Source: Styela clava (taxonomy: Eukaryota). From it: DNA of 64,000 bases. Each line of letters starts with the position of its first letter. Within the stretch, counting starts at the first letter, position 1. The notes below the pieces were generated by a model. It made no database searches. It was not told the DNA's origin and saw nothing but the letters and a program-made list of their open reading frames with translations. The stretch covers positions 18,476,001 through 18,540,000 of the forward strand of contig NC_135252.1 in the NCBI RefSeq assembly GCF_964204865.1, written 5' to 3'. A program made the translations under genes and the position numbers. Shown here piece after piece: positions 5,711 to 42,872 of the stretch.

Positions 5711-5776
5711 GTTTGATTTTTTCTATCTGTAAATCCGCAACAAAACTTCAAGCTTATAATTCAAAAAAGAAGAAAC

Positions 5777-14300: not shown

Positions 14301-14607
14301 TAAAACAAATCCGTTGTGTAGTAAATGGTCCAAAAAAATTGCACAAATGAGGTGGTCACAGCCGATCAAAATACGTGTTCGAACGTTTAAAATGAATGTC
14401 TGATATAATATCTGCCAAATTAAGCCAAATCAAATTATTGCCAATCATATTTAAATCGCGCAACCCCTGGGTGCGAGTTGCGTGTGCCCCAATTTAATGA
14501 TGCATTAAAGATTAAACAATTGTAGTATTTTAATGCGCATATGCAAAAAAACTATGAGCGATCCTCAAAGTTATTAAAAGAGAATTAAGAGTTTCAGTAG
14601 GTAGGTA

Positions 14608-17062
14608 TCATAAAAGATTGGAAAGCACTGTCTTGAACTTTGTCATTTTATCCTGACTAACTGCGTCAGCCACCCAAAATTTGAAACCTAGTCCTGAATT
14701 CCGACGACAGCCTGCCTGCTGTCCCATCTGTCCGCTGCGATTTCTGGAAGTACTTAATCCCATGAATGATCGTGCATAATCAAATTTCTGTAACATATGC
14801 ACGTTCCACTGCCTCACACTTTTCCAGTGAACCATTCCAACCTTTACAAGTTCTCCGTCCTCCGCTTTACACACCTACATTTCACAATTTAAATTATATT
14901 GATTGAGTTGTCGGAGACGTTTCAGCATACGCAAATTATGTTGAATGTTTTCTATCATTTGTATGATCTTATCGAGGAACTAAAATGATAGATTATCTGT
15001 ATTTCCCTAAGATTGGATACTAATTCATAAAATATTGATGATTACATTGAGACCAAATTCAGGTGGGTGCTTTGTAAGCCACTTTTCGGTAGTTCGTCCC
15101 AAATAGAAGATATCGAATTCACTTCATTTAGTACTCTGGTGATTATGCCATCAATAAATCATTTACGCTATCGAAGTAAAGTTAAATTTTTGATGAAATA
15201 AAAATACTTTCAAAAAAAAATTTAAATAAATATATGCGTCCATATTCAATTAAAAAATTGATAAAACTTTTATGGTAACTTCTTTTGTACATAATTTTAT
15301 GCAGTTTTGAAACCATATTATGTTTTATCTTTTTACGCCAAAACACTTTCAAATACAGTTATCGTTAAAAATCTACGAATCATAGTCTAGAGCGAACAAT
15401 ACAGTTTAACATTAGAATAAACATGAAAATAGCTTATAACAATTGAAGTGGAAACTGAAGAGAACGATACGCCGATGCAAATATAGAAATGTAGCTTAAA
15501 ATATTCACTGAGGTTAGGAGGCATTTTGGGGTTTTCGATTTGATGTAAATATGAGGCAACGCGATAACTCGCCCGTATGCACATCTAGGCTAGTTTCCAC
15601 GTGAAGCTATCTAGTACAGTTACTGAAATAAATTTGACGTATACTTAGGGTCAAAAACCCACAAATCGTCCAGCCACATCATTTCGTTTTGCTTTATTTC
15701 CGTTTATTGACATTACATTATATATATGAAGTAAAAGTTTTACAACGTATTCACATATATTTAATGCGATAGGTGAACCGTATTATTGCATATAAAGGAT
15801 CATAACACGGCCCATCGCAACATTCACTTTATTGGTGATTTTATGCCAAGTTGTAAACGAGGGAAAGGCGAAAGGCATGTTAAAGAAACAAGCTGATATT
15901 TTTGGGTCGCGTCGTTTAGATATTGGCCCAAGGAGGTACAATGTGTTCACATTATATTGTTCTATATATTATGACTTGGACACTGGCATGCTTCGTACAA
16001 GTTAGTTTTATCTCTTATAGATAGATAAATCTTAAAGTCAAATATGGTCACAGCATCCAGTTTGACTCCTCTTGAAGAAATACACGAAAGATGTTGAGCA
16101 CATAAAACACAACTGTCCAAACAAATCTACCCTAGTTTAACCAAACCAGACTCTTACCTGGATTTGAGATTTATATCAGTGACAGTAGTCAGGGTCGAAA
16201 CTAAAAATATTTACCAGTTCTTATACTAATGTAACTGATCCATCCATTAAAAATAATTAATTGGGTGTGTACGATTTTTGATTAACTTATTAATGTATAA
16301 TCTGGACATCCCAATATCATTGGTATTTTAGCCTATTTCGTTGAAAATATGAGTGTAACAATTCAAAGTCAAGCTTCTTCAAATTGTCCACGAAATGAAG
16401 TAATTCATTTACATCCCCAACACAAAAGTGTGTTTGTTCACGGATATGGAGGATCATCCGAAAGTGCTGAACATCAAGCACATATCCTCAGCTCGTACAT
16501 TTACGACGAATCACTCAATATCGACCCAAAGATTGCGGTCATTCCTAACGAAGCACAACGTTTCAATGCTTCTTGCGCTAAAGCAACCACTCATCTGTTA
16601 GATTATATAAAGAAAATTGCAAGAGGCGAACAAAGTTCAAAGAGCAACGGGGATGAATGTGTTGAGCTGCTGGTGTATTGCCACAGTAACGGTGCGAAAC
16701 CAGTTCAGAAGGCTCTTACTCCTGAAAAGCTTACAGAATTATGCAAGAAGGAAAATATCCCTGAAATGGAAATAGACAATTTAATGAGAAGAATAAGAAA
16801 GAAAATTGTCGTGATTTCGTTTGGAGGAGTGACTTACATTCCGGGAAACTATGCCAAGGTATGGTAAAACTGATATCAGCAGCTGATTATAATTCCTGTT
16901 TTTAGTCATTCTAAATAAAATACAGCAATAAGGTATACGCAAATTTACTACTTGTTCTATTAGAGTATATCGACTGCAATTGAACCGAGTTTTCTACTGT
17001 TGCTAAGATAAATTTATATATAGTTTTAACTTACTGTGCTTACCTTTAATAAGGATTTGAGA
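14608..17062 (-). CDS. Possible antisense spliced gene fragment of unknown function
   Basis: Minus-strand GT-AG exons 17062-17044, 16200-16158, 15121-15046 and 14874-14608 splice in a continuous frame (SQILIKVSTLTTVTDINLKSSEFDIFYLGRTTEKWLTKHPPEFGLNVCKAEDGELVKVGMVHW...). The acceptor at 15122 is weak and no start codon was identified. Confidence 0.3.
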
Positions 17063-17342
17063 CTGCAGAGAAATTAATTTACATACATAAATATAAGTTT
17101 AAAATGAATTATATATATATATGTCGTTTTTTGTTAAGATTGTCATGAATTTTTGTTCAACAAGCGACTATTTTAGCCAGTTTTGTCATTTTATGGAAGT
17201 TGGAAAGCAACCGAAAGATGACGAGGCAAATCCGAAAATTTATGTGAGAGATCCTGCAATGCCCGAGAGAGAGAGAGAGGTTTCTGCTGGAATATGGGAA
17301 TATTTCCCAACAGTTAGCACTGTCTCGGGGGCGGCCAAAGAT
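16349..17342 (+). CDS. Alpha/beta-hydrolase-fold-like protein D, copy 1 (13-nt deletion at end of exon 2)
   Basis: Exon 16349-16858 (VFVHGYGG, LLVYCHSNGA nucleophile-elbow-like motif, IVVISFGG) spliced in phase 0 to 17139-17342 (IVMNFCSTSDYFS). The acceptor at 16331 suggests a possible upstream exon. Confidence 0.6.
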
Positions 17343-17861
17343 GTAAGTGAATCGCCGGAAAGACTGAATCGATTTTTTTGTAATTTGATACCGCATGCAA
17401 TGCTCTGATGGCTGGGGCGATATAGGCCTATTGTTTTTTACCAGCTTCTTTGATAACCAATATTGGCCACATAGACCAAATGAAGATTCGTGTCCCAAGT
17501 AACAATTGCACAGCACGCTTGAATGTTCGTATTGTAGTAAGTTTTGAAGATGAAATAATGGGTTTCATATAAAATTATTTATTCCACCCTAAAGACGTTT
17601 CAAATAGTGATTTCCTTCTTCCCTTTTCGGTTTAAAATTCTAAATACCGATATTTTTCAAATTTTCATTTTACGTTTATGTAAACCATTTCACACTGCGT
17701 GTGATAAATATTATATTGAAGTAAACATTTTTATATTGCATAGCTTGTTGTGAATCGGAGAATCATCCACACTATCTCGGAAGCATTCTGAAGAATAAAA
17801 AGATGATCTGTTACATAAGAGAAGTTCTGGGATTAAAAGCGGTAGAACATCTAAACTAAAT

Positions 17862-18064
17862 GGTTCCATTACATTTGAACCCACGTACATTTGAACCCAC
17901 GACAATTGCACCTGCATGCCATTGCACCTATGGAAATTTTTTTGGTTTTACGGATATTTGTACTCATACTAACCTAACCCATGGGTTTTAGCACCCGCAT
18001 ATTGATTGAACCCGCGGATATACACATGGGTTCAAATGTACATGGGTTCAAATGTACGGTCACC
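17862..18064. mobile_element. Mutator-like MITE
   Basis: Inverted ends with repeated TACATTTGAACCC / GGGTTCAAATGTA and 9-bp TSD AAACTAAAT (17853-17861, 18065-18073). Confidence 0.8.
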
Positions 18065-18840
18065 AAACTAAATATACAATGAATAAAGTTTTAAAGCATA
18101 ATTTTTGATAAAATAATTGTAAAACATTTTTGGTATTATAAGCTTACGATTTTAAATAAGGGTTATTTTAACATCAGTTGAGTGCATTCACTACTAAATA
18201 TGAGAAACAATTTATATGTGTTGTTTTCAATATGCTTTGATCGATATATATGATTTTATAATATTAAAAGAATCAAGACTAGTTATCACTAGTAACAAAT
18301 GTCTATATCAAGTGATTCCTAATTTCATAATTTTTCGATGTTTAGCCTGTTTACTCTATTCCCCCATGATGGTAGATATTTAATATATAAAACTAAATCA
18401 TCGTTCTATACTTTTTGTAGTTTAAACTGGGTTTTCTCAGGTTTAAGAGCCGGCACAGGGACGCTCCAGTAGTGTGTGTACCAATATTGAGGTAACTAAT
18501 TTTGTTCGCCTACTTTACATCAAATTGTGTAAAGAGACGGATGCCTTTGGAAAAGGGGGTGTATTCACTTACACTTAGATAACACGGACAGTCCCTGAAC
18601 TCGTAATAGAAGCAAAATGAGAAAATTGGAATAAAAGTATATATGCCCTAACCCTAACCTGGTACCAACACTACTTGAGTATCAGAACAGAACTCTGAGT
18701 TTTATCAGTCCTGTAATCGAAAATCGGTGACAGATTATTTTGCCTCAAATTATTCAGATTAGAAGGTAGGAGTCATAAGTATTAGGCTAGAATATGTTAA
18801 CAACCAGAGCGAGAGTCGTGAATTAGAGTATCGTATAGAT

Positions 18841-19725
18841 TAGTGGTTCCCAAACTTTTAAGGCATCGTCGCCCCCTTACAGTAATTTACATTATATTAA
18901 ACTATATTTTCAGTAAATTATATTCTGTATTTGAAATCGGATACGAAAATTCCGATCAAAACAGTCCTCGCTCGCGATAATGACAATCGTTAAAATTGCT
19001 GATTTTTTCAGCGATGATGATTTGTCTGTTGTGCAGAACAGTCAGTTCATTGCCGATACGAATATTAACAAGAATTTGTCATTTTAAAATAATAATTTCA
19101 ATGTAAATGACCGTTGGGCCTACTTACAATAAAATGAAAGTATTTTTGCTCTGAAATACTGCAAGCTGCGTACATAAAATGTATTGTATACTGCTCGATT
19201 AGAATTATTCGCATTTTCCGATCTTGATAATTTGTTAAATTTAAGCCGCTCGCGGTTATTATCAAGATATCACCGTTAGCAAAATGCCAATGTCGACAAT
19301 AAAATTTTACAACACAACATTGATTAGTTTTGATCAATTTATCACAATATGGAAAGAAGTCGTGTGGAATCCGGCGGTAATTCAATAATGGATAATGGAA
19401 TGGATCAACTTCAGATAACTGCGGTGTAGTTTCCGATCGAAAATTCCGAAATTTTGCAATTTAATTTCAATTTCGTCTGCAAAATCTTGTTTTCGCTTGT
19501 TTTTACAACTATTAAGGGATTTATATCTCAGTAAATTGTACTATTTATAATAACTATAGTAGGGTATATCTGGGGAGAATCACAGCGTGCAATCTTAGCG
19601 GTTAACTATGAGTAAAGCTACGCTACGATTTCAAAAATTTTTGAGTATACTCGTAGGTCGCGAGGTTTCACCAAATTTATTTTCGAAAGAATTTGGGTTG
19701 CTTGAAAAAACGTTAGGAACCTCAT
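18841..19725. mobile_element. Old degenerate hAT-like MITE (copy at ~41634-42518)
   Basis: Left end TAGTGGTTCCCAAACTTTT and decayed right end AAAACGTTAGGAACCTCATT. No clear TSD. Confidence 0.35.
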
Positions 19726-19770
19726 TAACATGACTGTACCAAATACTGCATCTATTTGGTTACTCTAACC

Positions 19771-20079
19771 CAGGGGTCGGCAACCTACAGCCCGCGGGCC
19801 GGATTTTACTATAATTAGATAAATGGCAACAAAACGCAGAAAAGTTGATGCTAAGTGCAAAGGGTTCAATGGCGCCGAGAACATTCAAATGGAATTTTTT
19901 GAGATGCAATGCAATGAGGAAATAAATCTATATTCTATTCTAGAGATTTCTCGCTGCATGATTTTCATTATAAAAAGTATCATCCGTTCGGTTTTCAATT
20001 TTCTTAAAAAATGTGCGCCCCGCCAATGACTGCAACCCTTCATTTTGGCCCGCAAGTGACAAAAGGTTGCCGACCCCTG
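19771..20079 (+). mobile_element. hAT Charlie/Buster-type deletion derivative
   Basis: TIRs CAGGGGTCGGCAACCT / AGGTTGCCGACCCCTG with near-TSD ctctaacc/cctaacc. The internal ORF joins a transposase-like N-terminus (MATKRRKVDAKCKGF) to a C-terminal-like piece (ENIQMEFFEMQCN). Confidence 0.8.
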
Positions 20080-20466
20080 CCTAACCTTTCATACACAATA
20101 TTCTTAGTTTCTATCCGATGCATAATCCAGAAAATACATCACCTATATATCACAATAAAACACATGGTTTTCAACGAGCAAAAGAGTGGCCACGTCGATG
20201 AGAAATAAAACTTTTACATTCTAATTCATCAAGTGCCTCAAACTCAATACCGCCACTATTCTGAACCGAATTGATTTTTTAATTCCAATTGTGGTATAAA
20301 TACGCTTGAGTGAATATTTCCCGCTACGACTCCGAGTTACATGGTATAAGTGCGTATTCACGTCTTGTACTTTGCTCACCCGAATAAAACTCTTCAATCC
20401 ATTCACTAACAACTGACTGTAGGAACACTGGAAAGTCAATGGCTCAAATGAACAGATTGTTAAATT

Positions 20467-20713
20467 TATTGGACACGTAGTGGACATAACGATCGTTTTG
20501 TTGTTATGTTGTTCTCAGTCTTGTTCTTGTTGTTGTGTGACACGTTTTGAAAAAATCGCCTTTCTCTTTGATTACTGGACCAATTGCTCTTAAATTTCCA
20601 GTGGGTAAAGATGGAATTTTTCTCCAAAGGGCTATTACTTTTTTTTTTGCTATGACGTCATCAAAATTATGTGGCTCTACGTGTCCATATATTTGAGCAT
20701 AGCTCTCTTGTTT
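20467..20713 (+). mobile_element. Second HINE-like element (copy at ~43260-43507)
   Basis: Subterminal inverted repeat GGACACGTAG / CTACGTGTCC, (TTG)n-like microsatellite, and 3' hairpin GAGCATAGCTC followed by a T-run. Confidence 0.55.
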
Positions 20714-20976
20714 TAGATGAGGTGATATTATCTAAATCGTTATTTTGAGTTCGACATGTACGTAAGTAAATAAATGGAGCTTTAATTACGCATTAGAAAT
20801 TGTAGAAACAGAAGGTGAAGCGGAAATGTTATGAAGTGAAACAATGACGCATGCTGGGTTATGCGGTTCAAATTTTGATTAATATCACATTTTCGGTTTG
20901 ACGAGTTAGTTTAGTTTGGATTTGTTTATCAGTTATTCAGTAAAAAGCTACAAGACTGTAGTTCAAAACAAGAAAC

Positions 20977-23900
20977 ATGATGTGTAATTCTTTGTTCCTG
21001 TTGCTTATTGCGGGATCAAGTCTCGGTGAGAAAGTTTTAAAATAAATGACCCTACTTAGTGTAAATTAAAGACTAAAAATTATTAAAATTATGTATTTGT
21101 TTATTTCTCATAAAACAAATTCATTGTTAACATATAAAAGCTTTCACGATATCACACGAATAGAGAATGTCGCCAAATTAACGAACAACGCATGCCGATT
21201 GGAACATGTTTCGTCTAAATAACATAACCTAGTCCTAAGCTATGGCTTAGTCAAAATTAATAAACTTCATAATGTTACTCCTATACACAGCAAAAATATC
21301 GCCAAACTCAGAAGATACCTGTGATGACATATCACACAATTTTGACTTGACGGTAAGTTAAATTATTTATGTATTATTGCAATTTTATAAATACAATCAC
21401 CAAAACGTGTGTAAATACTATTAACCTAGCAAAAATCATTCTTGCGCAGATAATATACACATTGAATAACAAATTATCAGCGGCATTAAACCTCAAAATG
21501 TTATTTCTCGAATTTCATATGTCGATGTATGAATTCAAGGAAATGTTGCATTTGTTGTAAATAATTTGTAGTATACTATTCTTGCTCTAATTTTATACAA
21601 TTGATTGTTTAGCATATTTTTTCTTACTTCTTAAAAAACCCTTCACAAAAATGTGAAATAAAGTGTGTTTCATTCTGTTTGTTTCAGTTAACCAGCGAAC
21701 AAGGTAAGATGTGACTTTTATTACAATATTGATTGGTTTAACGGTCCCAGAATCTTTATTTGGATTCAATTTGAGAGAATCTTTGAATAAATATATATAT
21801 CAATCTCATTAGTTTTACATGTTCAAAATCTTCGTACACCAACAGACACACTAAGTATTGGTAAGCTAAAGCAACTTAAATCTATACCAGATTCAGAAAT
21901 ACATCAGAAGGTTTGTTAATTCAGATTTGCGAATGCAGTTGGAAGAAAAGCTTACATTATTGTTAATGAATAATTTTGACGGAGATCTTGTAATAAACAC
22001 TCAAATATTTGAAAATGTTGCACGCACCAACCTAAATCATACAACTACAGATAGAGATGATACCACCGACAATAATGTTGAATATTCTAGTTCCGCGTCT
22101 TCTAATGATGTCACAACTGATCCGTTTTATTCAAGGACAAATTTGATAACAGAGAAAACTGAATTGAGTACAAAGAAGGAAATTACGACAGGTTTTAATA
22201 ATTTTTCTTCATATTTTCAACGTAAATGTAGATCAAGCTACACCAACAACTCGAATTGCAATGCATTATGTATACACAGTGTAGAAGGGAACCAATAAAA
22301 ATATTGCAATGACAAAAATTTGAAAAAAAAACTCTTCAAATATGTATGAAATTATGGAAGTGTATTATCGCAAAACCTAACAAATTTGTATTCTAGTCAA
22401 AATTATAATTATTACTCAATTCTTATGGTAGTAGCTTATACAATTGAGGTAGTTTAGTCATTTGGTAAGGTATTTAAACTATAATGTCCGTAATATAATA
22501 CGAACGCGTCATCTATCGATTTCATTACATTCAATTATTAAACCTAATTGACCTCATTTCAAGCACTTACGAAATATACCGACTGGGAATGGCCGAGAAG
22601 TACCGACAAATTGATAACAACCGACAAAGATGATATTGGAGATGTGGTGACCACTGACACGGATTTAACTCTTCTTCAGTCTTCCACTTTAACTACTCTC
22701 GTTGATAGGAATGAAGGAAGCTCACATTCAGGTATCGGTACTAGCAGAAGATTTCTGTCTTCCTCTTGATCATTATATTTACAACGTATAGTTAATATTA
22801 TGTAATAATATTATGTTTTATATCAATATCAGATTTACCCGAGGATTGTACAAACATGCAAAAGAAAAACGCGAAAACTAAAAACGCTACTGGTGGAGTA
22901 TTTAATATTTATCCTGAACCAAACGAAAGTTCCATTGAAGTTTATTGTGATCTCGTCATCGACTGAGGAGGATGGATTGTAAGCTTCGCATTTTGAACAA
23001 AGCTAGTATAAGCTGATTAAAAATTATCCCTTGTATCAATTTTCAATATTCACTAATCACTCCACTCTCATGAGTGAAAATTTTATAAATCTGCACGGAT
23101 ACGTAAATTAGGCAAAATTTTTGTAACATTTCGTTGTGAATCAATCATTAAATAATATAAGAACAACAGCAAACTTGATTTCAAAGGTGTTTCAACGACG
23201 AATGGATGGATCGGAAAATTTTTATAGAAATTATTCTGACTACGTGAATGGGTTTGGAAAAGCTGATAGAGAAATGTGGCTTGGTAAGTTTAATTACTTT
23301 CATTATTGTTGGAATATTTGCAATGTAACAATTTTGAATGAAGTTGTGATAAGAAAATGTCAAAAAAATTTAATGTTGATCAAAATGTGCAACTCGGTTG
23401 GTTTACTTGCCCAATTCTAAATCCAGAAGTCATAAAATTAAATATTTCCATATTAAATCTTTGAAATTGTATAAAAACATTCAAGTTAACATAAAAATTA
23501 AGCACCAATACCATGTATAATGATACCTCATTTGCGCCAATATAAACTTCAGGTCTGGAAACGTTGAATCTGATTACGAATAAATATGATTGTGAACTTT
23601 GTATAGATATGAAAGATTGGGAAAACAACACAGCTTATGCCAAATATGGGTGAGTCGTGTGATAAAAAAATGAAAAATCCAATGAATAACACATAGCTTA
23701 TAAATGTGGGCTGAACTTTGAACGGCCAATCTGTCACCCTATTTAAGAAAGTCGACATTGACTTCAAGTTTTAGTGTTATTTGAGCACGCACTCGGGAAG
23801 AAATGCTAGAGCAATGGAAGTTGATTGGCTATCAAATCAATTCTTTATTAAACTTGGCATCTTGGAATTGTTGTGAATTCGGAATAGCTATTTCTAATAT

Positions 23901-24609
23901 TCAAAATAATTTATATTGATTGAATGAAACTACATAAGCTACAATAATGCAGATAAAAACACTCAAAATAAGATAGAAACGTACCAGACTACTGTAATAT
24001 TACTAGTACAAACAAAAATTAATGGGACCTCCTGAAGTATGCGCACCAAGATGGCGCACAATCTGAACTCAGGTTGTGTACAAAGTTTGGTTTCAGGTTG
24101 TGCGACATCTTTGTGTGCATACTTCAGGAGTACCAAATAATGATATACGTTTGACTGCTGTTGATAAATAGTCAAGGAACGAATCTCAAAACCTCTAGTC
24201 AAGGAACGAATCTCAAACCATCTCAGACATACTGTAGAGACGCAGTTGAAGGACAGAAACATGAATAACGCTCTAAATTTCTAGGGTGTTCAAAGTTGGA
24301 GATAAAACTAACAAATATCAACTTACTGTGGGGGAATACAATGGAAATGCGGGAGATTCAATGCTAAATCATTCTACAATGAACTTCACAACAAAAGATT
24401 ACGACAACGATATCTGGCAAAGTAATTGCGCTCAACGATTCAGAGGCGGTTGGTGGTACAATAAATGCCATCAATCTAACCCAAACGGCCTTTACTTATC
24501 AGGAGAATCTGAGTTTGGCGTTGGAATCAGCTGGTATACCTGGAAAACGCACAGATACTCCCTCAAATTTATTGAGATAAAACTCAGGAAAAAATCTAAA
24601 ACTATATGA
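20977..24609 (+). pseudogene. FReD gene type A copy 2 (single nonsense codon)
   Basis: Same 9-exon structure as A1, with the ancestral exon-5 acceptor (caag|CA, 22564). In-frame TGA at 22964-22966. Lacks the intron-7 HINE. Exon 9 at 24285-24609. Confidence 0.85.
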
Positions 24610-25520: not shown

Positions 25521-25540
25521 GAGCTAGTGTTAGGCTGAAG

Positions 25541-27312
25541 TTTTTTTTTTTTTTTTTTTACGAATCAGAACGACAAGTCTGGAATCCAGCCCAAATGCTT
25601 TCATACCCAGACTATGCCGACGGAAGTTTATGGATCAATTCTCTTTGTAATAGAGATCACCATTTTGTATACCACGTAGAGTGGTGGGCTTCCTGTCATC
25701 ACATCTGCTATATGTGAGATGGTATTTACTGAGTTGAGGTTTTACGCCGGCAACTGGGCGTTTTATATACAAGAGGTTTGAGAAGCCGAATTGAATTATG
25801 GCATGTCCAAAGAACCGAAATGAGAGACATCAGAGGAATTTGATTACCTGGGGCCGAAACATGGTAGTTACCTTTCTTTTTACCGTATTTTTTTTTTGAC
25901 GATTGATTCGGATGTTGAGGATTCTGTGGAAGTTGTTGTGTCCTTTCTGGTTCTTTTCCTCTGTAAGATCCACAATTGGCGGCGATAGATTCGACTCAAG
26001 GTCCGCTGGTGCAGATGTCGTTGCTTCCGGTGTTGTTTCGAAGACCGACGAAGACGTGGTGTCGCAAGACTCAAAGTTATCAATCCTTACTTTGATGTAA
26101 GGAAGGGGATGGAATGGCGTGTTTCCAATAGTTGACGACTCCTTAAATCTGTAGATTTGCCTGGGGGGTCTTGACAGTTGTGGAGATGGAGTTTTGAGTG
26201 GACTCACTACAGTCCTAACGTCCTCACATTCAGACCAGTTTTTAATTTCTCTTAAGCAGTTTAACTCCGAGTCGGAGGTAGAAAAATCACCTACCTTGTC
26301 GGTTGTTTCAGCAGGTTGTGCATCATTGTGGTTCTGCTCTGTTGTTCCAGCAGGTTGCACGTAATTCTGGCTCTGCTCTGTTATTTTTGCAGGTTCCACG
26401 TCATTCTGCTTCTGCTTTGTTGTTTCGGCAGGTTGCACGTTATTCTGACGTTGTTGTTGCGTATCTTTTCGCAGGGGTTTTCTTTTCTGCGGAGGCATGT
26501 TCCATCCTGTCACGGGGTTGGTGATGACTGGATCACGCTTCCGTTATTGACATTCTCTTAGTAAGTGACCCGGTGTTTTACAATACTTACAGACGGCTTC
26601 GTTCTTACATTCACTGTATATATGGCCGGTGGTGAGGCACTTCCCTCACGTCGGAGTGTATAACTCTCGTGGGAGGAAGGTCTTGCAGCTTTCACCATTG
26701 ATAACCACGTATTCCGGCAGACGGTCTTTTTAAAAACCGTCCATTAGGAATGACGTGTGCCCGTTGTAGACGTCGGTCCCCCGATACCAATTTTGGACTG
26801 CATTTCGTACCGTTCCACAGCCCAGCTTGTTGATCTTGATTACCGCCATGTTGTATGGAGTTTCCGCCGGAATTCTCCGTATGGAGATCCGGACAGGAGC
26901 TTCACTTGGTAGTGTCACAGTGATGTTACTCTTAGCCGTTTGTATCAGGCCACCTGTAGAAGAAAGAAAACTCTCTCTGCAGCTAGACTTCGGGCTGTCC
27001 GTTGGCGCAAAGGTGAGGATCCAGATCCCTCTGCGGCCCTCGAACAGCCCTTTCACCTGATCGCAGAACCTACTTGTTGTGGTGTTGTTCCGGAGGACGT
27101 CCATCATCTTCGGGAAATCCATGTCTTCGTCGGTCTTCAGGAAGAGCGTCCGAGGTCGAGATGGTGCAGCTGCGGAAACTTCTTCTGTGGCTGGAGTCGA
27201 GGATGCGGCGGCGGCGTAGCTCATCGTCTTCGTCTTTCGTTTTCTTCGTTCTTCTTCGCTATCGAGGGCCTAACCCAGTGAAGGGTTGCCTTAATCAAAT
27301 AGCGAATAATCT
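25541..27312 (-). mobile_element. ORF1-only non-LTR retroelement (HAL1-like, L1/Tx1-type gag-like ORF1)
   Basis: Poly(A) tail (T19 at 25541-25559) and TSD GGCTGAAG (25533-25540, 27313-27320), with empty sites at 4143-4150 and 47847-47853. One reading frame 27224-25830 (464 codons, three internal stops) with two CCHC knuckles [*]GKCLTTGHIYSEC and CKYCKTPGHLLREC. No endonuclease or RT. Confidence 0.85.
26300..26450 (-). repeat. 39-bp (13-aa) tandem repeat inside retroelement ORF1
   Basis: VQPAETTKQKQND / VEPAKITEQSQNY / VQPAGTTEQNHND / AQPAETT. Confidence 0.8.
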
Positions 27313-27639
27313 GGCTGAAGGCTCTCTTTTTTTTTTTTTTCATCTGTGTGGATGGACATCAGTGGCCGAACAAATTTTTGTGCTACCATTTATGGTGATC
27401 GATTACCATTTGGGATTGCTGCCTGCATGTAAATGGCCTGGCAATTGATGTAAATGAGTGACTTTCGAAGATTTCAAACATTTTTGTCATCATATATATA
27501 CGTTTGTTTCATATTCAAATATACCTATAATAATATGTCACGGATGCCGTCAGCCTTATAAGCGAGTTTCTTCCACTCACGCTTCAATCATCTCATTGGC
27601 ATACTCGATCCGTATAAAACCTTAGAGTACAAGGTTTGA

Positions 27640-27765
27640 GAGATATAGTGCATTGGGTCGAGGATAGGAAGATTGGGAAGCTAGGGCAATGGGTGGAGGA
27701 CAAGAATGTTGAGGGAAATCGGACAGTGGGTGTAGAATAGAAAGGTTGAAGTAGATAGGCAGAGC
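27640..27765. repeat. Contracted minisatellite upstream of B2
   Basis: Only ~3 degenerate units remain. The deletion junction aaggtttga|gagatatag at ~27639 is evident against the other copies. Confidence 0.75.
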
Positions 27766-28553
27766 CATTTTGTAACTTGCCCTCCTGTGTTAAAGGTTGC
27801 ACATCCCTAATTTAGCGTTTATATAAAAGACTAAAAATTTTGAAAGTCTGCATATAAACTCAACTAAGGGCAAGCCGCAGTAAACAGTCTGGCGGGCCGT
27901 GGGTTGGGCAACCAATATATAAAGCTACAGCTCCTATGACCTATACCGAGCCGTAGTTGTTGCCGAATATAGGAGATTGAAAACATCGTCCTGAAAACTT
28001 TGGTACCGGGATGCATGTATACGATCAATAACTTCTTACAAATTTGAAAATCTATTTATCCATAGTGAAACTAAAACACATTGCATATGAGACGTTGATA
28101 TAAACGTCAAAAATTATTTGTTATGAATTTCAATGATCGAGTTGAGTTGTCGGTGTTTTTCCACAGCAACAATAGAATAATAGTTTAAAAATCTTTGGCG
28201 CCCAAATATTATACTGAGCTCAACAATGCCATGAATCTCCCAAAAATATAGAAAACTACTTCAATGTAAAATGGAAGTAAATTAAATAGTTGCCAAATTT
28301 ATTTGGATTATCGGGAAATAATTTCTAAAAAATACAACATGTACCTAAATAAATACATCGACAGTTTGAAAGTTGTATTACCAAAAGATAAAGAGGAAAT
28401 GTTATGACGTGAAATGATGACGCATGATGGGTTATGCGGTTCAAATATTAGTTAACATTATCATTTTCGGTTTGACGAGTTAGTATGGTTTGATTTTTTC
28501 TATCTGTAAATCAGCAACAAAACTTCAAGCTTATAATTCAAAAAAGAAGAAAC

Positions 28554-30400
28554 ATGATATATCAATATTTGTTCGTGATACTTATTGCGTGTTCAAGTCA
28601 CGGTGGGATGGTTTTAAAATATTTGACCTACTTGATGTAAATTAAATACTAAAATTTAATAAAAGTATGTATTTGTTTATCTGTCATAAAACAACTCAAT
28701 TGTTTACACACAAAAGCTTTCACGTTATTACCCGAATTGAGTAATTTAAAAGGCCGGTTAGAACATTTGTTGTCTAGATAACGTAAATTAAACTACGGTT
28801 TAGTCCAAATTGACAAACTTCATAATGTTATTCCTGTAAACAGCAAAAATATCGACAAACTCAGAAGATCAGTATGATGGCATATCATACAATTTTGACT
28901 TTACGGTAAGTTGAATTACTTATGTTTTATTGTAGTTCTATGAGTACGATCACCGAAAAATGCGTTAATACTATTAACTTAGCATAGATGATTATCGCAC
29001 AGATTATATACACATTGAATAACAAATTTTCAGTAGCAATAAACACCGAAAAGTGTTATTTTTTGAATTTCTTACGTCGGTGTCAGCATTTAATATATAT
29101 ATAGGCTACATGTAGAATACGATCATTTGTGAAGTCGTAACACCTTGGGTGTTCGAGGAAATGTTGCATCTGTTGTTCATAATTTGGTAGTATATTAACC
29201 TTGCTTTATTTTAATCTAATTGATTGTTGAGCATATGTTTTGTTACTTCTCAAGTGACCCCTTTACAACACAGATAAAATAATTTACGTTTTACTCTGTT
29301 TGTTTCAGTTCTCAAGTGAACAAGGTAAGATGTGTTTTTTATACTTATATTGATTTGTTTAACGGCCCCAGAATCGGTTTTTATTTTGATTCAATTTGAA
29401 AGGATTTTTGAATAAGTATATATCTCAATCTCAATATGAGTAAACTAAAGCAGCTTAATTTATTCTACACCCGATTCAATTTTTTTTTAATTCAGATTTG
29501 CGAATGCAGTTGGAGGAAAAGCTTACATCAATTTTAATGAACATTTTTGATGGAGATCTTGTAATAAACACTCAAATATTTGAAAATGTCGAACGCTCCA
29601 ACCTAATTCCAACAACAACAGATAGAGATGGTACCACCGACAATAATGCTGTATATTCTAGTTCCCCGTCTCCTAATGATGTCATAACTAATCCGCTCTA
29701 TTCAGCGGCAAATGGAATACATGAGAAAGCTGCATTGAGTACAAGGATGGAAATTACGACAGGTTCAATCAATTTTTTTTTGACGCTTATAAGCATACGT
29801 GTAGATCAGGCAATATCAAATACTCAAATTACATTAATATATATACACAGTGTAGAAGAGAAACAATTATAATTTTGCAACTCTGAAATTTGCGAATATG
29901 AAAATTTGTTAAATATATCAAGAGTCTAACAAATTTCTATGCTATACCAAATTTTAATTGTTAATTCAATATAGGTAAATCTAAGCAATTGATAAAGTAT
30001 TTGAACTATAATGTCTGTAATATAATAAGAACACGTCATCTATCGATTCGATTAACAATCTATTTGATCCTATTTCAAGCACTAACGAAATATACTTGGG
30101 GATGGCCGCTTAGTACTGACCAATTGATAACAACCGACAAAGATGATTTTGGACATAGAGTGACCACTGACACGGATTCAACTCTTATTCAGTCTTCCAC
30201 ATTATCAACCTTCGTTGATAGGACTAGAGGAAGCTCACTTTCAGGTATCTGTAGGCTACCAGCAAAACATTTCTGCCTTCCTCTTGATCACTAAAATAAA
30301 TATCATGTTTATGTCAATACCAGAATTACCCGAGGATTGCACAAACATGCACAAGAAAAACGCAAAAATTAAAAACGATACCATTCCAAGCAAAAGTTGA
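28554..30400 (+). pseudogene. FReD gene type B copy 2, truncated in exon 6 (could encode ~211-aa stalk-only protein)
   Basis: Exons 1-5 are open (exon-1 donor weakened to gtggga). Exon 6 from 30324 runs into unrelated sequence and stops at 30398-30400, the same junction as B1. Confidence 0.8.
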
Positions 30401-32447
30401 ATTCCATAAATTTTTTTAAAAGTGTAGTGAAAGTAATTTTTTTTTTTTTTTTTTATATCAAAAGACATTGGAATTTTATTGGACTGCATTCTTTTCACCG
30501 AAAAAGTCAAAATTCCACCCAGGTTTTTGATGGTTTTTAAAAAATGGCCTAAAATGTAGAAATTTTGGTATAATTGACATATTTTGTGATGATTCGTGAC
30601 ACAAAGTGTTTGATTGTGCGATACAGTTATTTCATATGAAATAGACGCACTAGATTTAAATATTTTTTATTGGAGAGTTCTTTAATATGTATTAACGTCC
30701 TTTTTTTCTCTAAAACATTGTTATCATTAGCTTTATGTACCATATATGTGCAGAAAAGCATGTTGCATTACGCTACACTCTTTTAAATAAAAAATGCCCG
30801 ATTATATATATTGAGAAGATCAAAAGTTACAATTAGATTCGATACAATAAACCATTTTCGTCTTATCTTCTCAGCTATGTATCAACAACAATACAATAAT
30901 TTTTAGTTATTCATAATTTTGGGATTCATAATGGTACTTTTCTACCAGATACACAACCATGTTGAGGCTTATAGGAGTATCAATTGAGTAATTAAATAAT
31001 ATATAGAGTATTTTATCCAATTTTTGAGCTTGTTGGGTATTTCAATGAATGTCATTTTTCTGTGGCAATTCAATTAATGCTTTGCACCTACGTTGTTAAT
31101 GAATATATTTCACTCATTATTTTAATTTCGAATTGCCCTGAAATATAGTTAAGAGCAGGAATTTGTGAAAAATATGTATTTTGTAAGTTGCAATATTTAT
31201 GAAACATCTCAGTATAAATAAATGAGATGTTTTACAGATACAAAAATTTAATCTTATTGTTCTCTAACAAAATTTGGAAATGCTGGTGTTTACCTGTTGC
31301 TGTCAACATTTATACATTCATTCACACTGCTCTTCTATCTTCAATAGAATATGAAATGTACAATGAAGAAATAAACAGACTGAAACACGAAGGTGAGTTG
31401 CTGTTTTAATTTCTGAAATTTGTATATATGTTTTACTTGGCCGGTTAGAGATTGAGTTCATTACTTGATTCTGAATAAAAAAAAATACCATGTTTTCCAT
31501 TATACATACTTTTATAAATTATTTTATTTCAAAATTATTGCAAAATAATATATTTTTATCATATCATTGCTTATTTTATAATACAAGTTTCCAAAGCTGA
31601 TTGTATTTCGTATCGAGCATATCCCCATATTTGCATTCAAAATTCCAAATTACTTTAGGTTTGTTAAAATACCAATTTGTTGTGTTTTCTAGTTTCTTTT
31701 ACTATTTGATATTATAACATAGTTTTAACATCTATTTCAGTGACTGAAGCGAAAAAGTTAATAGAAAACTATAAGATTGATACTGATGCTTCAACAGAAA
31801 AACTCAATTTAGACAAAGATATCAAAAAATACTTAGAGAGAAGTAAGCAATCAAACTATTTACATTCCACACAAATGCCAATTAATAGTTCAGTGACACC
31901 AAACACGAAGCAAATTTTATTTTTAACTTTAACTTGGTCGTTCAAAAAATATAGGTATGTAAGAATGTAATGTAGAATGAAAGAAAATAGTTTTAGGAAT
32001 ACTTTATATCCACTTACCGTTACCGTTTCATGGACGTATTAAATGTGTCATTAATTATTCGATTATGCAGTACCTCTATCGTCCATAGTTAGCATTCGAC
32101 ATAGTCATAATTTTTATTGACAAAATTATTATTACAAAATTAATATTCAGGTCGTTATTTGCCGGATAGTTGTCGAGGGTTACACAAACTCAATTTATTT
32201 CTTGGAATGAAACCGGAGAAGTTTTTGGAATCTACCGTACACCGGTATCTGAAAAGATTTTACCGTGACTTGATGACAGATGACGGAGGATGGGTTGTGA
32301 GTTGAATCGATTTATTGTTATTCTGATTGAACCATTTTGTAATGTATTTTTCTATTATCTTACAAAATACTTAAAAACTTTCGATCCATGAAATAATTTT
32401 CTCGATCCTAGCTCCTTAACTGGAAATAATGACTTGTTTGTTTAAAG

Positions 32448-34112
32448 CAGGGGTGGCCAACCTTTCACATATCATGCGCCACGTTTTAAACATAATGTTT
32501 CAGATGCGCCGTAAATCTCATGTATTCCCACGCCTAATGTCCGCTTCTTGTGTCCACTCATTTAGAGAATTACGGAATCACTGAATTAAACACTGAATGA
32601 ATAAATTACAATGACAGCCGCATATATATAGTTAACTCAACGAAAATTCTCGTATCCACGCAAAAATTCGAGCAATTTACGATAAACAGATTACGATTGA
32701 TTACGAAACAGGGAACCATTGTGACGCCATGCTTCAAGTAAAAACTACAGCCTTCCTGAAAGTAGGAGAAAAACGCATTCTGTCTTAGTTATGAGCATTA
32801 CGCAATAAAGCTGTTTTTAACAACGAAGAGAAAAAGGTACGATTAAGAAGTAAAGTTAGGCGTAATATTGTGACAACAAGCCTTTAGTATCAATATCTAC
32901 TCTACTCTACTCTACCCTCGATTCTAATTGGCCTTTGCTAATCAGCTGTTTGGCCTAGCGTCGCGTGATTTCACTCCAGGCTTCTTCGAGATTAGTACCT
33001 GCGTCACAGCAAGCGATTTTACGCTTTGCTTTTGTTGACAACGGTCATTTGAAGTTTGGATGAAAAAGGCGGTATTTAGGGGTCATTTTCAGCATGTTGT
33101 GGGTTGATTTATATTAAATTTTTTAGACTTGGGCAATTCAATTGATTGTTCAATGGTTATTGGGAGATATTTGGGAAGTCTGGGCAATGGAAAATCCATG
33201 TCTCAAGCTGATAAATGACGATTTTCTATTTTTCCAGAAGTTCTGAACTTTTTACTTCAGTAGGAAAAAAATAGTAAATTTTACTAATTTTTGCTAAAAG
33301 TCTAGAATGAATGTCATAAAGTCCGTCCAAAAGCTAACGTCGATAATCGCCTGTTGTTTCTAATTCCAACAAGCCGTAAGTGGGCGACGTGGAGTAAGGA
33401 GAATAGATTTTAGGTACAATCAAAAGTCACCATGTAAATTGCAAAAAAACGGCTTGGGGTGGAGAAGCCAAGTGCTATTAACAATTTTGGCATGAAAAGG
33501 GTTAAAGATGCAATGCGCCACCTCTAATCATGCAATGCGCCACGTTTGGCGCATGCGCCATAGGTAGGCTTACCATATCTCTGAAGCCAAAAAACCGGGA
33601 CGGCGCGGATTGGACAAGTCAAACTTGGTTCGATTCTTGGGGTTAGTAATAGTTTAAACGCTTTCCTACCATTGTGGGTAGATTGCAGGCATCAAAATTA
33701 GCTGTAAATCTTATTACGAAATCCTCGGTTTGACAAATAAAAATAAACTCTCTTTCTATTGGTCTTCGCTTCAAATAATGGGAATTGTTCTCATTCTTAA
33801 ACTCATCAGAAAACTTGCACTTTGTTTCCGGCATTTTGATGATTCAACGACATTACAGTTGGGTGTTAAATTAACACATGGTTCATACTTCATGTCATGA
33901 AGTGAGACGCAAATCATTGGTAAATCGGCTGCCTCCATTAAAAATAATTTTTTTTGTAATATTATCGAATAGAAAAACTATTATGACTGTCATACTGCAA
34001 AACCGGGACATTTAAGTCTATCGCCGGGACGGCAGAAAAACATGCTAAAACTGGGACTGTCCCGGCTGAACCGGGACGTATGGTAAGCCTAGCCATAGGT
34101 TGGCCACCCCTG
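32448..34112. mobile_element. hAT element, copy 2
   Basis: Same TIRs and GTTTAAAG TSD as 9675-11339. Confidence 0.92.
33565..34091. mobile_element. Nested hAT MITE, copy 2
   Basis: TAGGCTTACCATA TIRs and GCCATAGG TSD. Confidence 0.9.
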
Positions 34113-37100
34113 GTTTAAAGTCTTGTTTCAATCGCTATCTTCCGATATCTTTATCCCAAGTATATATACCGATTGAAATATATTTGAAAGTGTAATGTTT
34201 TTACAAAGGTATTTCAACGTCGAATGGATGGCTCTGAAAACTTTTATCGTGAATGGTATTATTATAAAAAATGGATTTGGAAATACAACTGGAGAATTTT
34301 GGCTTGGTAAGTTTTTTTTTATTCGCTTAAATAGTAAACAAATTTTTATCCTGAACTAGTTCTTGAAAATGCTGTCAACTGAAAAATGTTAGATATATAT
34401 TTCATTCATTCCAATTTTACATATTCATTTTGTTTCCTGTCAGTGTTTGACGCAATATTCTTGATCATAGTATAAAACATGAAATTCATTCAAACCACAA
34501 ACTCGATGACGATATTTTACAAGCTGTTGAAAATGAAAATTCACTATTCGCAACTGTTAATCGTAACGACGAAAAACGATAAGGAGAATAGCGGGGGAAA
34601 CGATTCTGATAATCTTTATTTCTGGTCACTGTGGCAACTTTTCCATCTTATTAACCAAACGATATATTGAGGAAATCCATTCTGATAAACGTCCGTGGCA
34701 CACAAAAATTTACCAAATTGCACTTGTGTGGTGAAATTTTGTATAACGTACAACAGTACGCTAAATGCATTCGTATCAGACAAGGACGCGGGATCAACCC
34801 GTATAAAGGTTAATGATATACATCATCAAGGCAGGCTATTATAATAAATCTTGTATCTGAAATTAAGTTTTTAGGTCTTGAAAATATCTATCAGATATTG
34901 AAAGGTAAGACGTATGAACTCAGAGTAGACATGGAATACTGGGAAGGAAACAAAGCCTATGCAAAATATGGGTATGATATGAGCGTGTATGTAAAAGCTG
35001 GAATTGGGTTTAAATTATCATGTTTCTATATCTATTTCCAGAACATTCTCAATCGGTGATTCTTCAACAAATTATCGTTTAACGATTGGTCAATACAGTG
35101 GAAATGCTGGGGATTCACTTAGACATTCCCAACATCAAGGACAATCTTTCACAACTAGAGACGCAGATCATGACTCTACATCTGGCAACTGTGCTGTGAA
35201 TTTTGAGGGAGCGTTCAGGTACGGAGGTTGTCATGCGACTAATTTGAATGAACTGTATATCGCAGGAGGAAAAGCGGAATACGGAATATCTGTTGTCTGG
35301 TGGACCTGGAAAGGCCATATTCAGTTCAAGTGGTGTCGTTATGTTTGCTCCGAGCGGGTGTCTGATAAATATGCCATTAAAAGCAAAGCTTAAATGTTAT
35401 GGTTCGCTAAATAGCTCTAAACAATGCCAAATTGTAAGCATGTATTCCCCACAAAAAAGATAAAAAGCCAGTCGAGACTGCTACGAACATCATGCAACTT
35501 CACTACCGTGTTTTCCCAAAAATAAGACTGCCCCTTTTTTTTAATTTTCTTTCGAAAAATAACACTAGCTCTAATTTTCTGGCGATGACTTTTATTTTCA
35601 TTTATAAAAAAACAAAATTACAAAGTAGAGATTACGAGATTTTCAAATACACAAAATATGAAAACCGATATCCATTTACTTATACTTATATCCATTTACT
35701 TAATATAAATAAACGAAATTGCAACATAATTAAGTGGTGTACTTTTGTATATACGTGTAATTCGGATTGACTCGAAACCAGATGTTCAGGACGTGGCTCC
35801 AATTCATTGCATTGTATTCGCAATAACGCAATATCTATTTTTAACAAACGGCCATTTATTTTTAGCGATGTTGTGGGCTACAATATAATTGGTCAATAAC
35901 GTAGATTCACTTTCATTTGACGTTTTCTTTTGTTTGACTTTTTCATGAATTTAGGTATTTAACGTAGAATTAAATTTTGAAATTCACGCTCTTACTGACG
36001 GTATTTTAAAGAGTGCTTCGTCTCATAATAGCGCCCAATGATGCATTACGTCAGAACTGGAATATTTTGTTGGCAAGGAAGACAAATCGCTGAAGTTTAA
36101 ATCTTTTTAATAAATAAATAGGACGGTTGCCATATACCGTATCTAAAAAACGCCTGTTTTCGGTGACTAGTTGTCGTTTTGTGATATCTTTAAGCTTTCT
36201 TAACAACTTGGCACAAAATGATCAAATCAGAAAATGTTATTGCTGTGGGTCGCGTTATAATGCATTATTGTTTCTAACCTATATACTGTTATTTAAAAAG
36301 GTATCTTCAGATTATATCAAATGAACTGATTCCGAATCGTCAATTCGGTTCCGTTGCCACTTTCCTATGAAGATATCACAATCTGACGTCAGCCACGTAC
36401 GGCATTTTAATCAAACCCGCTCAGTAAAAATATGCAAAATGGAGAATTTCAAGCAAATTATCATAAGCTTCATCTTTTCATTATATAGTATTAAGATCAA
36501 TGTAGCCTTGGAAAATGTAAGAATACCACATGCGATGGAGGAGCTACGTCGAAAGACATCACACAGAAAGTTACACGACATAATAATTGCATTAATTAGT
36601 GGAGATAAGTTTTATTTAAAGCGAAAGTGTGAACACGCCTGACTATAAACTTTCAATTTGCAATAAATTATATCATATATCATATATAATTTAATGCTGT
36701 TATAGAAATAGTCATTGCCTTCAGATCTCAAAGTCTCTCTATAGAGCTCGTACTGTGATAATTCGTGAAAGCATGCTGATGCACAAATTGAGAATATTTG
36801 TTCATCGTGACTTATTAGTTATATCTACGTACTAATCGATTATGCTTCTAATACGTTTGCTGTTCTGAACAGTTTTCGATGTTAAAAGTTGCCCTGTTTT
36901 CAAACGCTCCTTCAAACACCTACCAACCACCATTATCAAAAATTGCGGCGAAATTAATTAAAGGAAATTATGCACAAACGTTTACCCGATGCCAGGGGAT
37001 ATTTCAAACATGCCAAGAGTTTGCTGATAAATGTCATTTAAACAAACTTTTTGTTTTAATAGAATGAAAATCTCCAAAAGAAAATCTTGGTAAAACAAAT

Positions 37101-39129
37101 CCGTTGTGTAGTAAATGGTCCAAAAAAATTGCACAAATGAGGTGGTCACAGCCGATCAAAATACGTGTTCGAACGTTTAAAATGAATGTCTGATATAATA
37201 TCTGCCAAATTAAGCCAAATCAAATTATTGCCAATCATATTTAAATCGCGCAACCTCTGAGTGCGAGTTGCGTGTGCCCCAATTTAATGATGCATTAAAG
37301 ATTAAACAATTGTAGTATTTTAATGCGCATATGCAAAAAAACTATGAGCGATCCTCAAAGTTATTAAAAGAGAATTAAGAGTTTCAGTAGGTAAGTATCA
37401 TAAAAGATTGGAAAGCACTGTCTTGAACTTTGTCATTTTATCCTGACTAACTGCGTCAGCCACCCAAAATTTGAAACCTAGTCCTGAATTCCGACGACAG
37501 CCTGCCTGCTGTCCCATCTGTCCGCTGCGATTTCTGGAAGTACTTATCCCTATGAATGATCGTGCATAATCAAATTTCTGTAACATATGCACGTTCCACT
37601 GCCTCACACTTTTCCAGTGAACCATTCCAACCTTGACCAGTTCTCCGTCCTCCGCTTTACACACCTACATTTCACAATTTAAATTATATTGATTGAGTTG
37701 TCGGAGACGTTTCAGCATACGCAAATTATGTTTAATGTTTTCTATCATTTGTATGATCTTATCGAGGAACTAAAATGATAGATTATCTGTATTTCCCTAA
37801 AATTGGATACTAATTCATAAAACATTGATGATTACATTGAGACCAAATTCAGGTGGGTGCTTTGTAAGCCACTTTTCGGTAGTTCGTCCCAATTAGAAGA
37901 TATCGAATTCACTTCATTTAGTACTCTGGTGATTATGCCATCAATAAATCATTTACGCTATCGAAGTAAAGTTAAATTTTTGATGAAATAAAAATACTTT
38001 CAAAAAAAAATTTAAATAAATATATGCGTCCATATTCAATAAAAAAATTGATAAAACTTTTATGGTGACTTCTTTTGTACATAATTTTATGCAGTTTTGA
38101 AACCATTTTATGTTTTATCTTTTTACGCCAAAACACTTTCAAATACAGTTATCGTTAAAAATCTACGAATCATAGTCTAGAGCAAACAATACAGTTTAAC
38201 ATTAGAATAAACATGAAAATAGCTTATAACAATTGAAGTGGAAACTGATACGCCGATGCAAATATAGAAATGTAGCTTAAAATATTCACTGAGGTTAGGA
38301 GGCATTTTGGGGTTTTCGATTTGATGTAAATATGAGGCAACGCGATAACTCGCCCGTATGCACATCTAGGCTAGTTTCCACATGAAGCTATCTAGTACAG
38401 TTACTGAAATAAATTTGACGTATACTTAGGGTCAAAAACCCACAAATCGTCCAGTCACATCATTTCGTTTTGCTTTATTTCCGTTTATTGACATTACATT
38501 ATATATATGAAGTAAAAGTTTTATAACGTATTCACATATATTTAATGCGATAGGTGAACCGTATTATTGCATATAAAGGATCATAACACGGCCCATCGCA
38601 ACATTCACTTTATTGGTGATTTTATGCCAAGTTGTAAACGAGGGAAAGGCGAAAGGCATGTTAAAGAAACAAGCTGATATTTTTGGGTCGCGTCGTTTAG
38701 ATATTGGCCCAAGGAGGTACAATGTGTTCACATTATATTGTTCTATATATTATGACTTGGACACTGGCATGCTTCGTACAAGTTAGTTTTATCTCTTATA
38801 GATAGATAAATCTTAAAGTCAAATATGGTCACAGCATCCCGTTTGACTCCTCTTGAAGAAATACACGAAAGATGTTGAGCACATAAAACACAACTGTCCA
38901 AACAAATCTACCCTAGTTTAACCAAACCAGACTCTTACCTGGATTTGAGATTTATATCAGTGACAGTAGTCAGGGTCGAAACTAAAAATATTTACCAGTT
39001 CTTATACTAATGTAACTGATCCATCCATTAAAAATAATTAATTGGGTGTGTACGATTTTTGATTAACTTATTAATGTATAATCTGGACATCCCAATATCA
39101 TTGGTATTTTAGCCTATTTCGTTGAAAAT

Positions 39130-41264: not shown

Positions 41265-42563
41265 TGTGTGTACCAATATTGAGGTAACTAATTTTGTTCG
41301 CCTACTTTACATCAAATTGTGTAAAGAGACGGATGCCTTTGGAAAAGGGGGTGTATTCACTTACACTTAGATAACACGGACAGTCCCTGAACTCGTAATA
41401 GAAGCAAAATGAGGAAAATTGGAATAAAAGTATATATGCCCTAACCCTAACCTGGTACCAACACTACTTGAGTATCAGAACAGAACTCTGAGTTTTATCA
41501 GTCCTGTAATCGAAAATCGGTGACAGATTATTTTGCCTCAAATTATTCAGATTAGAAGGTAGGAGTCATAAGTATTAGGCTAGAATATGTTAACAACCAG
41601 AGCGAGAGTCGTGAATTAGGGTATCGTATAGATTAGTGGTTCCCAAACTTTTAAGGCATCGTCGCCCCCTTACAGTAATTTACATTATATTAAACTATAT
41701 TTTCAGTAAATTATATTCTGTATTTGAAATCGGATACGAAAATTCCGATCAAAACAGTCCTCGCTCGCGATAATGACAATCGTTAAAATTGCTGATTTTT
41801 TCAGCGATGATGATTTGTCTGTTGTGCAGAACAGTCAGTTCATTGCCGATACGAATATTAACAAGAATTTGTCATTTTAAAATAATAATTTCAATGTAAA
41901 TGACCGTTGGGCCTACTTACAATAAAATGAAAGTATTTTGGCTCTGAAATACTGCAAGCTGCGTACATAAAATGTATTGTATACTGCTCGATTAGAATTA
42001 TTCGCATTTTCCGATCTTGATAATTTGTTAAATTTAAGCCGCTCGCGGTTATTATCAAGATATCACCGTTAGCAAAATGCCAATGTCGACAATAAAATTT
42101 TACAACACAACATTGATTAGTTTTGATCAATTTATCACAATATGGAAAGAAGTCGTGTGGAATCCGGCGGTAATTCAATAATGGATAATGGAATGGATCA
42201 ACTTCAGATAACTGCGGTGTAGTTTCCGATCGAAAATTCCGAAATTTTGCAATTTAATTTCAATTTCGTCTGCAAAATCTTGTTTTCGCTTGTTTTTACA
42301 ACTATTAAGGGATTTATATCTCAGTAAATTGTACTATTTATAATAACTATAGTAGGGTATATCTGGGGAGAATCACAGCGTGCAATCTTAGCGGTTAACT
42401 ATGAGTAAAGCTACGCTACGATTTCAAAAATTTTTGAGTATACTCGTAGGTCGCGAGGTTTCACCAAATTTATTTTCGAAAGAATTTGAGTTGCTTGAAA
42501 AAACGTTAGGAACCTCATTAACATGACTGTACCAAATACTGCATCTATTTGGTTACTCTAACC

Positions 42564-42872
42564 CAGGGGTCGGCAACCTACAGCCCGCGGGCCGGATTTT
42601 ACTATAATTAGATAAATGGCAACAAAACGCAGAAAAGTTGATGCTAAGTGCAAAGGGTTCAATGGCGCCGAGAACATTCAAATGGAATTTTTTGAGATGC
42701 AATGCAATGAGGAAATAAATCTATATTCTATTCTAGAGATTTCTCGCTGCATGATTTTCATTATAAAAAGTATCATCCGTTCGGTTTTCAATTTTCTTAA
42801 AAAATGTGCGCCCCGCCAATGACTGCAACCCTTCATTTTGGCCCGCAAGTGACAAAAGGTTGCCGACCCCTG
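42564..42872 (+). mobile_element. hAT Charlie/Buster-type derivative, copy 2
   Basis: Same TIRs and ORF remnant as 19771-20079. Confidence 0.8.

Follow-up and report, generated by a model that had tools for sequence, protein, structure and literature searches.

The window, meaning the whole 64,000-nucleotide stretch of Styela clava DNA that was analysed (1-64000), carries a tandem array of fibrinogen-C-domain genes. The array includes a 22.8-kb duplication (98.5%; 4830-23497 against 27637-46291) and older units of 6-9 kb. Exons of a second protein, with a 188-aa open frame, lie within the duplicated block (16301-17408 and 39082-39648). A G-rich, strand-skewed minisatellite of 36-37 bp is present at 56948-57547, 4660-4942 and 48400-48488, and similar sequence flanks several dispersed elements elsewhere (e.g. 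L125, L181, L187).

A retroelement of 1.77 kb is inserted in the array on the minus strand (25541-27312), antisense and about 0.9 kb beyond the stop of a fibrinogen-C-domain gene (Table 1). The earlier note on this DNA had described a complete ORF1-only element with poly(A) and an 8-bp target-site duplication (TSD), for which paralogous units hold empty sites. The insertion with both marks was confirmed, and the empty site with a single TSD copy was found in three paralogous units, at 4133, 47836 and 56394. Pfam zinc-knuckle matches bear out the two CCHC knuckles claimed for the encoded protein, and the insertion does lack ORF2.

Table 1. Features of the insertion and its surroundings, in window positions
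Feature	Position	Strand	Remark
Last exon of fibrinogen-C-domain gene, tandem array	24277..24609	+	PF00147, E 5.5e-31
TSD copy, 3' side of element	25533..25540	+	8 bp; present once in empty paralogous sites
Poly(A) tail	25541..25559	-	19 nt
Family 3' UTR	25560..25867	-	about 308 nt
Predicted folded 3' module	25560..25708	-	box C-like and box D-like motifs, short terminal stem
ORF1, broken in window copy	25868..27224	-	open, 445 aa in array copy L003
Coding tandem repeat, 39 bp	26302..26447	-	3.7 copies; L002 and L003 have one unit fewer
Two CCHC zinc knuckles	26550..26648	-	first Cys of knuckle 1 is a stop in window copy
Element's own 5' UTR	27225..27289	-	begins GC where SL-like genes have GT donor
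Predicted hairpin in 5' UTR	27267-27289	-	
21-nt spliced-leader-like exon, type a	27290..27310	-	identical to exon of tandem arrays on C4, C6, C7
Two extra bases between TSD and exon	27311..27312	-	absent upstream of array exons
TSD copy, 5' side of element	27313..27320	+	8 bp

The window copy is dead and was wrongly called complete. The 464-codon frame attributed to ORF1, which starts at 27224, is not open: stops occur at codons 165, 193 and 227 (26730-26732, 26646-26648 and 26544-26546), the second of which hits the first Cys of knuckle 1, and frameshifts follow late in the frame. Compared with the intact L003, from which it differs at 43 of 1710 aligned bases, the window copy has an 8-nt deletion, a 1-nt insertion and a 1-nt deletion in this late part. 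These indels push its frame past the family stop near 25868, and the family 3' UTR is therefore about 308 nt and not 270 nt as first read. The short 5' UTR of that reading includes the element's own, but its start is an unnoticed 21-nt exon resembling a spliced leader (SL), plus two bases; the extra 5' G among these may be a copied cap. The insertion is a dead, dispersed stray of an ORF1-only family.

This family has many copies in the genome. A DNA search with the element returned at least 62 matches (40 of 170 candidates scored), and an exact-pattern search found 34 heads and 57 tails. Four subfamilies, A (window copy, about 445 aa), B (about 410 aa), C (480-510 aa) and D, have one head and one 3' UTR, the last 240 nt of which are 83% alike across subfamilies despite saturated synonymous sites in ORF1. 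Many copies, different TSDs and 5' truncations mark its propagation. The expectation of a multi-copy family with a common ORF1-to-3'UTR junction and differing TSDs is supported. The earlier note had proposed that its reading would fail if other copies ran into ORF2 or if an intron-containing host gene were the parent. ORF2 stands directly before none of 66 tails; 57 have an ORF1 match upstream and nine have no match. An ORF2 match lies within 2.2 kb of six tails, and an ORF1 piece intervenes each time (L044 read by eye). Three loci with long head-to-tail distances (L115, L116, L011) have no ORF2 match in the 2.2 kb before the tail. The ORF1 homologues are intronless element ORFs. Styela clava, an ascidian, thus has a genuine ORF1-only, HAL1-like family, which fits the definition of such elements and is not a mammalian HAL1. 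At one locus (L049/L127, G000:C4:22827510), within a cluster of tRNA genes, a half-element head immediately follows the 5' half of one such gene. The truncated tails L141, L016 and L017 (C14:1.92 Mb) are duplicated with a spacing of 1570 bp beside a 5S rRNA array.

ORF1 has been under purifying selection after the loss of ORF2. The dN/dS of its core is 0.11 between subfamilies A and B, 0.073 between C and D and 0.097 between C and C2, in comparisons whose synonymous sites are saturated or nearly so. Between close copies the ratio is near 0.5-1. Autonomous ORF1 has a value of 0.048, which indicates selection of similar strength. ORF1 is open in 16/16 full-length array copies and broken in dispersed ones such as the window copy, L024, L028, L034 and L035. 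In trees, the half-element ORF1 nests among autonomous ORF1s. The first ORF1 tree placed one autonomous ORF1 among subfamilies A-D at 86/85, and a single origin of A-D is neither established nor rejected (p-AU 0.226, with a tree from which 7 of 25 rows were left out).

The predicted architecture of ORF1 consists of two RRM domains, two CCHC knuckles, a low-complexity C-terminal half and a basic tail. The fold model reached a pLDDT of 89.4 with a 19-row alignment and 33 with a single sequence, and a fold search with it returned tandem RRM proteins. Pfam identified zinc knuckles only, and a profile search of solved structures gave knuckle proteins only. Named homologues are uncharacterised Styela clava proteins, with no named Tx1 or ZCCHC3 among the matches listed. 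The multi-copy mobile pattern argues against a ZCCHC3-like domestication.

The end of the element may also be structured. A box C-like motif lies at 25696-25702, a box D-like motif lies at the very end, and a short terminal stem, altered at two positions in the window copy, closes the module. Support for this 3' UTR fold from covariation is low (5 of 38 pairs, covariation term +0.35), and it is accordingly no more than a prediction. Changes on both sides of a pair are few and come mostly from an autonomous family that shares the tail. In array copies on C4 and C6, short non-A stretches of varied sequence separate the element's end from the poly(A), and their 3' UTR showed no canonical polyadenylation hexamer; tailing may be non-standard.

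The earlier note missed the SL-like head and the site-specific home in arrays of SL-like genes. The 22-mer at the head (the 21-nt exon and one base) has 901 exact matches in the genome, mostly in tandem arrays. The C4 array has an 831-bp unit with three exon types and the C6 array a 490-bp unit, and a GT donor follows each exon in both. Array exons are short, end in AG and are multicopy in tandem. In the last 13 nt of the exon, 12 match the Ciona leader as given in PMC7986045. The 24-nt leader listed as 'Chordata 1' in PMC3795323 stands in a related gene whose intron has a similar hairpin. Exon types a-c are predicted to encode spliced-leader RNA; Rfam gave no SL family match in five loci. Sister retroelement copies differ by the loss of an AG-ending segment after the exon (L156 is without the short one found in L160, and L190 and L192 form a second pair), which suggests that the leader is used in trans-splicing. 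The element is also covered by contigs from two runs whose RNA origin is a guess; these were not counted as evidence.

Such exons are also found in other elements. Dispersed LINE-like elements of several unrelated families start with a type-a exon joined to non-donor sequence (L149-L161, L171, L178, L045 and L047), and L178 has two different leaders in tandem. The 24-nt chordate leader has 326 exact matches, often in same-strand pairs 5-7 kb apart inside direct repeats of 240-750 bp (L190-L203, L211-L212). These pairs are LTR-like elements carrying a leader relic in their repeats.

Of the 34 half-element heads, 15 lie in two arrays whose combined length is at most 0.19% of the assembly, and the other 19 lie elsewhere. 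Among 17 array copies in 400 kb of C4 and C6, the 3' junction falls exactly at the donor in 15; one lies at +1 and one has no poly(A). The tandem SL-like arrays hold 16 full-length half-elements. Tail-proximal sequences of the array copies are of 13 different kinds, which speaks for mostly separate insertion events, and some of the copies may be products of array duplication. Extra array stretches (50 kb of C7 and 60 kb of C6) held no further half-element. An ORF1-only element also occupies the donor of a gene with the 24-nt chordate leader (L142). One truncated half-element has a 12-bp TSD resembling those of autonomous copies at the exact donor junction (junction 0). Flanks of the dispersed copies are varied.

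On insertion, the resident exon is replaced by the incoming one or fused with it. In 200 kb of the C6 array, where 219 resident exons are of type a, all three type-c exons stand directly before a half-element, and two insertions have hybrid exons. Foreign exon types thus accompany the half-element, which means that the exon belongs to its RNA. The exon type varies within a subfamily. In the array copies, the promoter region, exon and element are already in register.

Alongside the half-elements, the arrays contain a large number of autonomous families that have ORF1, ORF2, APE and RT. Against solved structures, the ORF2 of these relatives is closest to human L1 ORF2p (E 5e-60), with R2 at 2e-25. 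PF03372 (APE) is N-terminal in both helpers tested, whose junctions are fixed; a restriction-like endonuclease as in NeSL/CRE was not found in them. No named Tx1 sequence occurs among the 120 homologues listed or in the solved structures. The candidate helpers are placed by these matches in the L1 group. The proposed relation is supported for autonomous L1-group (APE+RT) elements, as is mobilisation, necessarily in trans.

Three autonomous lineages are candidate helpers. The first has the same box C/D-like frame at its end and the closest ORF1, but 13 of its 14 copies are inserted 5 nt further on (+5). The second has a distant ORF1 and another tail type; 15 of its 18 autonomous copies are at junction 0, and no similarity between its 3' UTR and that of the half-element could be detected (z -0.6 to -2.1). 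The third, with an ORF1 starting MAYAA and an ORF2 of 1162 aa, has a 3' UTR that matches the half-element at 72% across 168 nt and at 83% in the final 69 nt. An autonomous family with a common 3' end, as the earlier note had proposed to look for, is therefore present, but it is mostly dispersed: eight of nine copies lie outside the C4 and C6 SL-like arrays, and the sole array copy lies at +2 to +4. No single target emerged from seven of its copies. The endonuclease mainly sets the insertion site, according to PMC4494074, and the junction-0 lineage is thus favoured for the array insertions, with modest odds as the candidate helper. ORF1 and tail are from +5 families while the junction is that of another lineage, so the helper of the half-element may have switched.

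The junction-0 lineage has an ORF1-only derivative of its own, sighted four times (once on C4 and three times on C8). This second lineage (G000:C4:23329500-23331746; L142, L232 and L233 on C8) lies at SL-like donors, is about 2.6 kb long and has an ORF1 of 455-475 aa and no ORF2 match. Autonomous heads (G000:C4:23304090 and others) keep the GT donor, predicted to be hidden in a hairpin with a complement in their own 5' UTR. Another insertion, 1.4 kb long, polyadenylated and with a tail of a different kind, lies at +5 of an SL-like gene (G000:C6:19611873-19613250, in the L237 area).

These observations are best explained, with a probability of about three in four, if the insertion in the window is a dead, dispersed member of an ORF1-only L1-group retrotransposon family whose intact kin sit at predicted SL donors and likely use the SL promoter and the ORF2p of a complete element. 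A source copy would be transcribed from the SL gene start, giving an RNA that opens with a capped SL exon, and would need no promoter of its own because its RNA starts at the SL gene promoter. The ORF1p produced would coat its own RNA, which could explain why ORF1 is retained under selection. ORF2p supplied in trans would then nick the donor and reverse-transcribe from the poly(A); the best fit to the junction is the abundant autonomous lineage with exactly the same one. The RNA-borne exon replaces or fuses with the target exon, as the exon types and hybrids show. Some insertions miss the arrays, keep the exon head, gain a TSD and decay, as the window copy has.

A role as helper for the third family, acting on the shared 3' UTR in SINE-LINE style, or for another tail-sharing family, is rather doubtful, even though the tails are alike, the family supplies most double-sided pair changes in the 3' fold, and GT follows the poly(A) directly in 7 of 9 copies. 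It has a long 5' UTR of its own, it is largely absent from the arrays, and its one array copy is off junction 0. Improbable in turn is the acquisition of the head by trans-splicing, in which a read-through RNA from any host promoter takes the SL exon at the AG ending the relic exon and dispersed copies also act as sources. Many unrelated LINE-like and LTR-like elements begin with an SL exon that runs into non-donor sequence, sister copies lose a short AG-ending segment, the half-element has GC and not GT after the exon, and exon types differ inside one subfamily, all in keeping with this route. However, it cannot yield the exon, donor and source intron start that autonomous neighbours carry into a foreign array, and the array half-elements already stand in register with promoter region and exon. 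That ORF1 is retained because it benefits the host, for instance by acting as a dominant-negative brake against the autonomous SL-array elements, is very improbable. The selection on the ORF1 core is strong, and L1TD1 is discussed in that role in a section of PMC4161310, but the copies look mobile (varied tails, TSDs, many sites) and are not fixed at one locus, and autonomous ORF1 is under similar selection. A single event in which a full LINE was shortened by deletion or by early polyadenylation is ruled out by the copies found, and so is a processed pseudogene of a host gene: four subfamilies with saturated synonymous sites have a common head and tail, none of the 66 tails directly follows ORF2, and the intronless ORF1 homologues precede ORF2 in autonomous elements.

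A further, tentative reading has somewhat less than even odds. The half-element may be active and have changed hosts: while retaining ORF1 and the box C/D-like tail from one retrotransposon lineage, it would be inserted by the endonuclease of another, within a community of site-specific elements that share the SL splice donor and in which ORF1-only parasites have at least two origins. If this is true, its own ORF1p, and not tail recognition, would let a passenger RNA capture a foreign ORF2p.

HAL1 of mammals is a non-autonomous element that encodes ORF1p only (PMC5753468, PMC4161310). As far as the HAL1 sections of these sources go, the two systems are alike in having ORF1p only, a poly(A), an L1-group origin and repeated origin (two lineages in Styela clava). 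The ascidian element differs in being sequence-specific, in taking its head from the target gene, in having no apparent promoter of its own and in its young intact copies. The known mammalian half-L1 examples are largely old. Mammalian L1 ORF1 has a coiled-coil/RRM/CTD architecture, in contrast to the predicted two RRMs and two CCHC knuckles here, and no homology to mammalian L1 ORF1p was found by Pfam or by the profile search of solved structures, which gave knuckles only.

CRE and CZAR of trypanosomatids are specific for spliced-leader genes. The same specificity is described for the non-LTR elements NeSL of nematodes and SLACS of trypanosomatids (PMC4640811, PMC8869645). The four share SL-gene specificity with the present elements and differ in being early-branching and autonomous with a restriction-like endonuclease, whereas the helpers here have APE and an L1-like RT. 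Tx1, Keno, Kibi, Koshi and Tx1-Mar are APE-type and insert in multicopy targets including snRNA genes, and SINEU is a non-coding element with an snRNA-derived head for which transcription from the target flank is proposed (PMC4494074). The Styela clava elements resemble this clade in the APE type, the multicopy target and the proposed transcription from the target's flank; the part of that source on the clade names no SL target and no ORF1-only member. The head derived from a small-RNA target is shared with SINEU, which, unlike the half-element, is non-coding. R2 of 28S rRNA genes is co-transcribed with its target, and its integration is more strongly site-specific when the RNA includes target sequence (PMC4494074). 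In what is summarised there, R2 is alike in its target-dependent transcription and unlike in clade, enzyme, target and its autonomy. A literature search, with Repbase and Dfam outside its scope, returned no paper on SL-targeting APE elements or tunicate ORF1-only elements, and an earlier description is possible.

With this family, APE-type elements and their parasites are added to those that target spliced leaders. It also addresses the open question of why half-L1 elements keep ORF1. Since intact young copies, candidate helpers and a target precise to one base are present in one genome, Styela clava allows a direct test of what ORF1p does in cis and of which helper is used.
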